Assembly (NCBI RefSeq): GCF_024298765.1
Contig: NZ_CP101210.1
Source of the DNA: Escherichia coli
Lineage (GTDB): Bacteria; Pseudomonadota; Gammaproteobacteria; Enterobacterales; Enterobacteriaceae
DNA: 64,000 nucleotides
Strand: one strand, 5' to 3'
Both the position numbers and the translations under genes were made by a program. Of the stretch, positions 22,408-22,924 are shown in pieces (the stretch's first letter is position 1; each line of letters begins with the position of its first letter). The notes below the pieces were generated by a model, which saw only the letters and a list, made by a program, of their open reading frames with translations, was not told where the DNA came from and did not search any database.

Positions 22408-22924
22408 GAGTTCCCCACGTCAGCGGGGATAAACCGACGTAACAAAACAACAGCAAAATATTATCGACGAGTTCCCCACGTCAGCGGGGATAAACCGGCT
22501 CCGCCGGTTTGATCTCCGGTTTGCGCTGTGAGTTCCCCACGTCAGCGGGGATAAACCGGCAATTAATTTAGTTCCAGATGCTGCGAAAGAGAGTTCCCCA
22601 CGTCAGCGGGGATAAACCGTTGGTCACTCGTCAAAAGTCGAGACGGTCGAAGAGTTCCCCACGTCAGCGGGGATAAACCGAATGATTGATATAAATCTGT
22701 GTACGGTGTCCGGAGTTCCCCGCGCCAGCGGGGATAAACCGCTAGGATAAATTAAAAGACAAAATTGCAGCAAGAGTTCCCCGCGGCAGCGGGGATAAAC
22801 CGGAGCGACCAGTATCAAGATCGACAGGTTTTGCGAGTTCCCCGCGCCAGCGGGGATAAACCGATCGATATGTACGTTAGCGAGGGGATCACGCAGAGTT
22901 CCCCGCACCAGCGGGGATAAACCA
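22408..22924 (+). CRISPR. Type I-E CRISPR array, 9 repeats and 8 spacers of 32 nt (queE-proximal array)
   Basis: 29-nt repeats at exact 61-nt period starting 22408, 22469, 22530, 22591, 22652, 22713, 22774, 22835, 22896. Repeats 1-5 are GAGTTCCCCACGTCAGCGGGGATAAACCG, 6 and 8 are canonical GAGTTCCCCGCGCCAGCGGGGATAAACCG, 7 has a single substitution, and 9 is degenerate (terminal). Confidence 0.97.

Follow-up and report, generated by a model that had tools for sequence, protein, structure and literature searches.

A block of variant repeats at the leader end of an Escherichia coli CRISPR2 array as a probable record of layered spacer acquisition

The CRISPR2 array of Escherichia coli, known from K-12, lies between queE and ygcE and is composed of repeats of a 29-nt family, the terminal one degenerate, with spacers of 32 nt between them, and E. 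coli arrays in general have been said to change slowly (Touchon and Rocha 2010, PMC2886076). The same study reported natural "stretches of conserved repeat variants" and read them as the result of duplication of the adjacent repeat. An example is provided by Salmonella Schwarzengrund CVM19633 (PMC2886076, Table S6), where contiguous identical variant repeats are present in a type I-E array. The copying itself was demonstrated in an experiment of Yosef et al. 2012 (PMC3384332), who marked repeat 1 and found the mark copied into every new repeat. The parts of the repeat that matter for this process have been analyzed by Goren et al. 2016 (PMC5039180): two molecular rulers operate, one of which is anchored at the motif CCCCGCG in inverted repeat 1; adaptation does not need the bases that separate the inverted repeats, and it dropped about 100-fold when multi-base substitutions were engineered into the inverted repeats.

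Here we describe a CRISPR2 array in which a block of identical variant repeats occupies the leader end. The window, i.e. the whole stretch of 64,000 nt that was analyzed, belongs to an E. coli chromosome, and strain 104 (NZ_CP029164) has the same sequence but for one base over a 41.2-kb stretch around the array. Like the K-12 array described by Touchon and Rocha (2010, PMC2886076), the array of the window is located between queE and ygcE, has repeats of the same 29-nt family that end in a degenerate copy and enclose 32-nt spacers, and is served by a cas operon that lies about 17 kb off and adjoins the iap-side array. The difference is that the five leader-proximal repeats of the window array carry two substitutions, G10A and C13T. 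The features of the locus and of the associated cas operon are listed in Table 1.

Table 1. Features of the queE-side array, its surroundings and the type I-E cas locus in the window
Feature	Position	Strand	Description
Leader	22069..22407	+	AT-rich; from the queE stop codon to repeat 1; queE end according to the RefSeq annotation of the near-identical strain 104
queE-side array, type I-E (CRISPR2, queE-ygcE)	22408-22924	+	nine 29-nt repeats, eight 32-nt spacers
R1	22408..22436	+	variant, G10A + C13T; putative template for new repeats
S1	22437-22468	+	spacer read as acquired once repeat 1 was variant
R2	22469..22497	+	variant repeat
S2	22498-22529	+	spacer read as acquired once repeat 1 was variant
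R3	22530..22558	+	variant repeat
S3	22559-22590	+	spacer read as acquired once repeat 1 was variant
R4	22591..22619	+	variant repeat
S4	22620-22651	+	spacer read as acquired once repeat 1 was variant
R5	22652..22680	+	oldest variant repeat; read as repeat 1 at the time the variant became fixed there
S5, boundary spacer	22681..22712	+	variant repeat upstream, canonical repeat downstream
Older part of the array, R6-S6-R7-S7-R8-S8-R9	22713..22924	+	
R6	starts 22713	+	canonical
R7	starts 22774	+	C13G
R8	starts 22835	+	canonical
R9, terminal degenerate repeat	starts 22896	+	G12A + terminal G29A
Degenerate remnant array	23378..23516	+	two or three decayed repeats, one spacer; between the main array and ygcE
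Type I-E cas operon	40010..48529	+	cas3, cse1, cse2, cas7, cas5, cas6e, cas1, cas2; eight ORFs match NCBIfam type I-E models
iap-side array	48626..49874	+	21 repeats; all canonical except the last (C13T)

All nine repeats depart from the E. coli type I-E consensus by three mismatches at most, a level at which no chance matches are expected, and they recur every 61 nt with spacers of uniformly 32 nt. Repeats R1 to R5 all read GAGTTCCCCACGTCAGCGGGGATAAACCG, and the canonical repeat reads GAGTTCCCCGCGCCAGCGGGGATAAACCG. The shared two-base variant of the first five repeats had been reported in a first-pass annotation of this DNA, and the sequence is as described there at all five repeat starts. 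The same annotation had counted three older repeats and eight repeats in total; the older repeats are indeed mostly canonical or changed at a single base, but there are four of them (R6-R9), which brings the total to nine, and R9 carries two changes. With five identical variant copies among nine positions, any one specific arrangement has odds of 1 in 126. Chance and assembly artefact could be ruled out as sources of the repeat pattern, as more than 30 complete genomes, assembled independently and mostly of poultry origin, share a 1.2-kb stretch with the entire array at 100% identity.

Some further traits of the surroundings can be recorded here. The spacer of the degenerate remnant array, GACTTGTTATCATTTTTTAAGTTGTCGAACTT, is present in every related locus examined except that of 2017-02-2CC, where the remnant is reduced to one degenerate repeat. 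Just upstream of queE, ygcG (window positions about 20229-21102, mapped from the annotation of strain 104) is annotated as a frameshifted pseudogene in this lineage.

The same locus was fetched from 22 other genomes for comparison of the arrays. The junction formed by variant R5, spacer S5 and canonical R6 is found in 79 genomes among 5,426 complete E. coli genomes, in 77 of them at 100% identity and in two with one-base differences. A canonical repeat upstream of S5 would appear as two mismatches, and these are seen in none of the 79 genomes; the one-base difference that was examined (strain 22AR0750) falls in R6 and leaves the variant repeat intact. The state before the variant, in which S5 would be preceded by a canonical repeat, is absent among the 5,426 complete genomes, so that the moment of the change itself is not observed.

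On the leader side of S5, the family splits into three branches. In the branch of the window, the full set of which is retained in MDR_56 and JNE120442, the spacers added are, oldest first, S4, S3, S10, S2 and S1; in 2017.09.02CC they are S38, S37, S36 and S35, and in GF131 S13 and S12. All new repeats in the three branches are of the variant type, and the variant block grows with the number of branch-specific spacers. Spacer S10 is located between S2 and S3 in MDR_56 and JNE120442 and is missing from the window array, from which it must have been deleted; the window lineage thus underwent five acquisitions once the change had occurred and has since lost one unit. Elsewhere in the family, S3, S6, S2 or S1 has been deleted, and the differences between strains are altogether accounted for by additions at the leader end and internal deletions, new spacers being seen at the leader end only. 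Contiguous variant copies at the leader end are a property of every S5-family array examined and also of 2014C-3075, SCU-301, MFDS1019527 and 2020CK-00188, where the blocks rest on other anchor spacers. Across six branches, 23 distinct spacers have variant-type repeats on both sides, all of them 32 nt long and forming 61-nt units. The array of 2020CK-00188 displays nested layers, with canonical repeats followed, towards the leader, by six variant repeats and then by five repeats that combine the variant with C28T. In this array, S40 is also duplicated in adjacent units.

These comparisons bear on most of what the first-pass annotation had claimed. Its premise that new repeats are copied from the leader-proximal repeat agrees with the arrays of related strains and with the published work (Yosef et al. 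2012, PMC3384332; Touchon and Rocha 2010, PMC2886076). The comparison with the same array in related strains, which it had proposed as a check, reveals a common boundary at S5 with differences only on the leader side, always behind the variant. The distribution of the variant is linked to the order of acquisition, and the block extends with branch-specific spacers. The proposal that the first repeat mutated and at least four spacers were then acquired holds in its second half, the acquisitions made behind the variant numbering five in the lineage; a mutation private to the lineage is not demonstrable, as the allele is found on at least three leader haplotypes.

The interpretation that we favor, with a probability of roughly 85%, is that this is an ordinary CRISPR2 array in which repeat 1 is an existing allele with G10A and C13T and the five-repeat block is a layered record of acquisition. 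Cas1-Cas2 would insert each spacer at the junction of the leader and the first repeat, duplicating repeat 1, so each acquisition made after the allele had taken the place of repeat 1 would leave one more variant repeat. For the window lineage, the order would be S4, S3, S10 (later deleted), S2 and S1. The natural arrays thus resemble the experiment of Yosef et al. (2012) in that repeat 1 is copied likewise, including the second, nested mark C28T in 2020CK-00188; the experimental label was, however, placed at position 2 of the repeat, outside the palindrome, whereas the natural label lies inside it. With the Salmonella blocks, the array shares the run of contiguous identical variant repeats, and one of those blocks even carries the equivalent of C13T, but the Salmonella variants shown in that study are located in the loop or outside the stem, whereas the variant of the window breaks a stem pair within inverted repeat 1, the anchor of Cas1-Cas2.

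Searches of phage and plasmid collections matched only the older spacer S6 (to four Escherichia phages) and none of the variant-flanked spacers. Protospacers were found by searching E. coli chromosomes, which contain prophage copies, and their plasmids. The reference for the comparison is a prophage of strain SE11 (positions 2261815-2308960, beside a tRNA-Ser gene; fetched region NC_011415.1 2244000-2293000). Against this copy, S6 has an AAG PAM and two mismatches (two to four across the prophage copies), S10 an ATG PAM and one mismatch, S12 an AAG PAM and six mismatches, and S1, the protospacer of which lies in the tail-sheath gene, an AAG PAM and two mismatches. The four protospacers are on one strand, within about 2 kb, in the tail-sheath/tail-tube region. 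S36 has a weak match with eight mismatches and an ATG PAM 3 kb further on the same strand, and the cluster including this tentative member spans 5.3 kb of the SE11 tail module (positions 22223-27480 of the fetched region). No match was obtained for S2-S5, S7 and S8 in the phage and plasmid collections or in E. coli chromosomes.

Spacers from other lineages were also traced. S40 matches the early region of the same prophage with an AAG PAM. S49, with an ATG PAM, matches a loxP arm (TATACGAAGTTAT) beside a cre-like integrase gene (pLKSZ04, positions 1501-1532); the plasmids that match it are mostly 92-120 kb in size and are taken here to be P1-like. S50 is a tentative further member of the tail-module cluster, in which the PAMs are AAG or ATG where the match is good. 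The PAMs and the matches argue that the variant-flanked spacers are genuine acquisitions. Protospacers of three branches fall on the same strand and within a few kilobases of the S6 target, which suggests priming by the older S6 for several of the acquisitions and argues for their addition in place, although the sampled prophages are not the historical targets themselves.

The position of the two substitutions can be compared with the motifs defined by Goren et al. (2016, PMC5039180): G10A is inside the anchor motif, and C13T is between the inverted repeats. Unlike the engineered multi-base mutants, the natural single G-to-A change was followed by at least 23 accurately sized acquisitions, a record that covers the accuracy of integration and not its efficiency. 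These acquisitions, with correct PAMs where protospacers were found, indicate that this position is not essential for integration, and we infer that accurate integration tolerates a single G-to-A change in inverted repeat 1.

The variant 29-mer is present in 118 of the 5,426 complete E. coli genomes, in 1-10 copies each, and is repeat 1 in at least 95 of the 118. At least six distinct array contexts have it as repeat 1, and the leaders in front of it form no fewer than three divergent haplotypes, with 15-24 differences over 340 positions; the final 64 nt of the leader are the same in 14 of 14 loci compared, and the S5 family shows zero or one leader difference. The spread over divergent leaders and unrelated arrays implies an older allele that was inherited or imported, and at repeat 1 of the window lineage it may have been inherited, imported or generated in place. 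Some arrays depart from the pattern of a leader-end block. In N96 and Z0117EC0005, two unrelated arrays, a variant repeat 1 is followed at once by canonical repeats, and in 2017-02-2CC the variant is the lone repeat. The 042-type arrays contain a single internal variant upstream of their oldest spacer, S15, repeat 1 and the other repeats being canonical. The patterns of N96 and Z0117EC0005 and of the 042-type arrays do not follow from simple copying, so added recombination or repeat-to-repeat deletion is needed. The simplest reading of these arrays would be one old origin of the allele followed by recombination at the locus and by repeat-to-repeat deletions. Since the longest stretch shared by the variant and the canonical repeat is the 3' 16 nt, a deletion across the boundary between them should usually keep the variant signature and would thereby produce a variant repeat 1 followed by canonical repeats with no recurrence of the change.

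Two observations on individual repeats belong with this survey. The repeat upstream of S15 exists in four states across strains, i.e. the variant, C11T, C14T and canonical. The terminal repeat of 2020CK-00188 carries the variant signature together with G21A and A29 and is located downstream of two canonical repeats, a placement that is not explained by simple copying.

Intermediates and external sources were also sought. A repeat with G10A only occurs once each in three genomes and is internal to the iap-side array in the one examined; a repeat 1 with C13T only, behind this leader, was found in none of 4,081 genomes. Other species could be rejected as the source, the 26-nt variant core being without a match in one genome per species from 100,044 species. 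The 19-nt variant core has two isolated matches, in Truepera and Corynebacterium contigs, among representative genomes, and no donor sequence with both changes outside E. coli arrays was found in representative genomes of other species.

Several other explanations of the variant block have to be weighed against layered acquisition. Gene conversion could in principle yield runs of identical variant repeats by homogenizing neighboring copies, without any tie to the order of acquisition, but such concerted evolution is hardly credible here: most of the arrays fetched have their block at the leader end (the exceptions being the internal copy of the 042-type arrays and the terminal repeat of 2020CK-00188), their size in the S5 family tracks the branch-specific spacers, the layers of 2020CK-00188 are nested in the expected order, and the older single-base variants at R7 and R9 have not been homogenized. 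Homologous recombination could have imported the block whole, with leader, variant repeats and spacers, and is evidently at work at the locus, since the trailer spacers S27-S15 are linked to different leaders and the variant is found in unrelated arrays and on divergent leaders. For the S5 family, however, such an import would require three transfers that end at exactly the same repeat, because three branches share the precise S5 boundary and the same leader haplotype and differ in their spacers; moreover, the prophage strand and region targeted by the resident S6 are also hit by S10 and S1, by S12 and, tentatively, by S36, as primed acquisition, unlike import, would predict. We consider this explanation very unlikely.

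A further alternative concerns the allele itself, which might have arisen at repeat 1 repeatedly and independently, through a mutational hotspot or templated conversion, so that its spread would reflect recurrence and not common descent. Its occurrence as repeat 1 in so many array contexts and leader haplotypes is in line with this, as is the fact that Z0117EC0005 and 2020CK-00188 share the trailer spacers S27-S15 yet carry the variant at different depths. Recurrence is nevertheless unlikely, as two specific substitutions would have to recur together although C13T alone is repeat 1 in none of the 4,081 genomes with this leader and G10A alone is confined to three genomes (and to the interior of the other array in the one examined), no donor with both changes was found outside E. 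coli arrays in the representative genomes, and a deletion across the boundary explains a variant repeat 1 followed by canonical repeats. A more speculative idea, to which we give little credence, is that the combination of G10A and C13T is a non-neutral repeat-1 allele that moves by short-tract recombination and raises the acquisition activity of the array, either through altered anchoring of Cas1-Cas2 at inverted repeat 1 or through fewer hairpin-dependent transcription pauses. If true, it would explain why the allele is repeat 1 on at least three divergent leaders, why single-step intermediates are missing and why 2-11 new spacers were taken up in bursts behind it, in a species whose arrays are believed to evolve slowly.

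Besides its role as a label, the variant affects the predicted structure of the repeat RNA. The canonical repeat folds with RNAfold into a 7-bp stem with a 4-nt loop at -15.1 kcal/mol, and the variant reaches a minimum free energy of -9.7 kcal/mol, which is 5.4 kcal/mol weaker; repeats with a single-base change fold at -15.1 or -14.3 kcal/mol. In the variant, the pairs from U5-A22 to C9-G18 and the pair C11-G16 are kept, and A10·C17 forms a 1x1 internal loop at the sixth of the seven stem pairs, second from the loop, so that the A·C mismatch which the first-pass annotation had placed in the stem recognized by Cas6e is borne out by the predicted pairing. C13U, as a base of the tetraloop, has no effect on the fold by itself. 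A fold of the whole array is dominated by pairing between different repeats, and local windows of 93 nt, with 32 nt of context on each side, were used instead. In these windows, the lower five base pairs have a probability of at least 0.96 at R1, R4 and R5, whereas the hairpin is left with a probability of 0.00 at R2 and of 0.11 at R3, as compared with 0.97 and 0.48, respectively, upon in-silico reversion to the canonical repeat. The predicted loss is due to the sequence of S2, GCTCCGCCGGTTTGATCTCCGGTTTGCGCTGT, which contains two CCGGTTTG motifs complementary to the 3' half of the repeat; pairing with S2 is predicted to out-compete the variant hairpin at R2 and R3 but not the canonical one.

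The iap-side array is canonical except for its last repeat and the queE-side array is partly variant, and Cas6e of this genome must therefore handle both hairpins. Cas6e makes its specific contacts at the base of the stem, as seen in the structures of Thermus Cse3 and of E. coli Cascade. The variant hairpin is probably still processed by Cas6e, and the weaker stem could reduce the yield of crRNA where an adjoining spacer competes, as predicted for R2 and R3 beside S2. The stronger claim, namely that the variant substantially impairs processing and that S1-S4 are stored but poorly expressed memories, is doubtful, if clearly worth considering. The lower predicted stability and the collapse of the hairpin at R2 and R3 in context speak for it. 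Against it, R1, R4 and R5 retain their lower base pairs in context, the mismatch is distant from the stem base, and the repeat is transcribed before S2, so that folding during transcription favors the local hairpin; cotranscriptional folding and tight binding by Cas6e could thus override the competition from S2. The variant lineages also went on acquiring spacers from one prophage family, but this could be due to the S6 crRNA alone, because S6 is flanked by non-variant repeats. In the accessible literature, we found no mutagenesis data on this stem position or on the tolerance of Cas6e for stem mismatches. A search of Rfam returned no CRISPR repeat family and only a sub-threshold chance hit to Chlorobi-1.

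The Cas proteins encoded in the window give full-length or near-full-length matches to the NCBIfam type I-E models; the exception is Cas3, for which the best full-length model, PRK09694, covers residues 2-759 of 885 with a score under the curated cut-off. The cas3 gene of the window is nonetheless an 885-aa ORF that starts from GTG at 40010 and takes in both the HD and the helicase domain, and the reading frame of cse1 is open as well. In the RefSeq annotation of strain 104, whose cas3 sequence is the same as that of the window, cas3 is marked as "frameshifted" and casA as having an "internal stop" (window region 39967-44327 for cas3 and cse1). The frameshift call could reflect a disputed 5' end of cas3, and the casA stop may fall outside the stretch compared with strain 104; owing to the mark on cas3 in this sequence-identical strain, the present-day activity of the system is uncertain. 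A gene for a Hok/Gef-family toxin is located between cysH and cas3 (window positions about 39620-39772, mapped from the annotation of strain 104).

No new principle is involved here, the phenomenon having been described in 2010 and shown experimentally in 2012. New elements are the corrected repeat count, the lost S10, the nested layer in 2020CK-00188, the priming-like cluster of protospacers, and the wide, patchy distribution of the allele, of which the literature searched contains neither an account nor the repeat sequence in either orientation. The locus amounts to a natural mutagenesis experiment, in which one base is changed in the inverted-repeat-1 anchor and the same change also introduces a mismatch into the Cas6e hairpin. 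Judged from the arrays and their protospacers, the findings point to real type I-E adaptation of wild E. coli against one prophage family, with priming as the probable route. The variant block is a dated marker that splits the spacers into those acquired before and those acquired after one event, and it helps to reconstruct the recent immune history of a mainly poultry-associated lineage.
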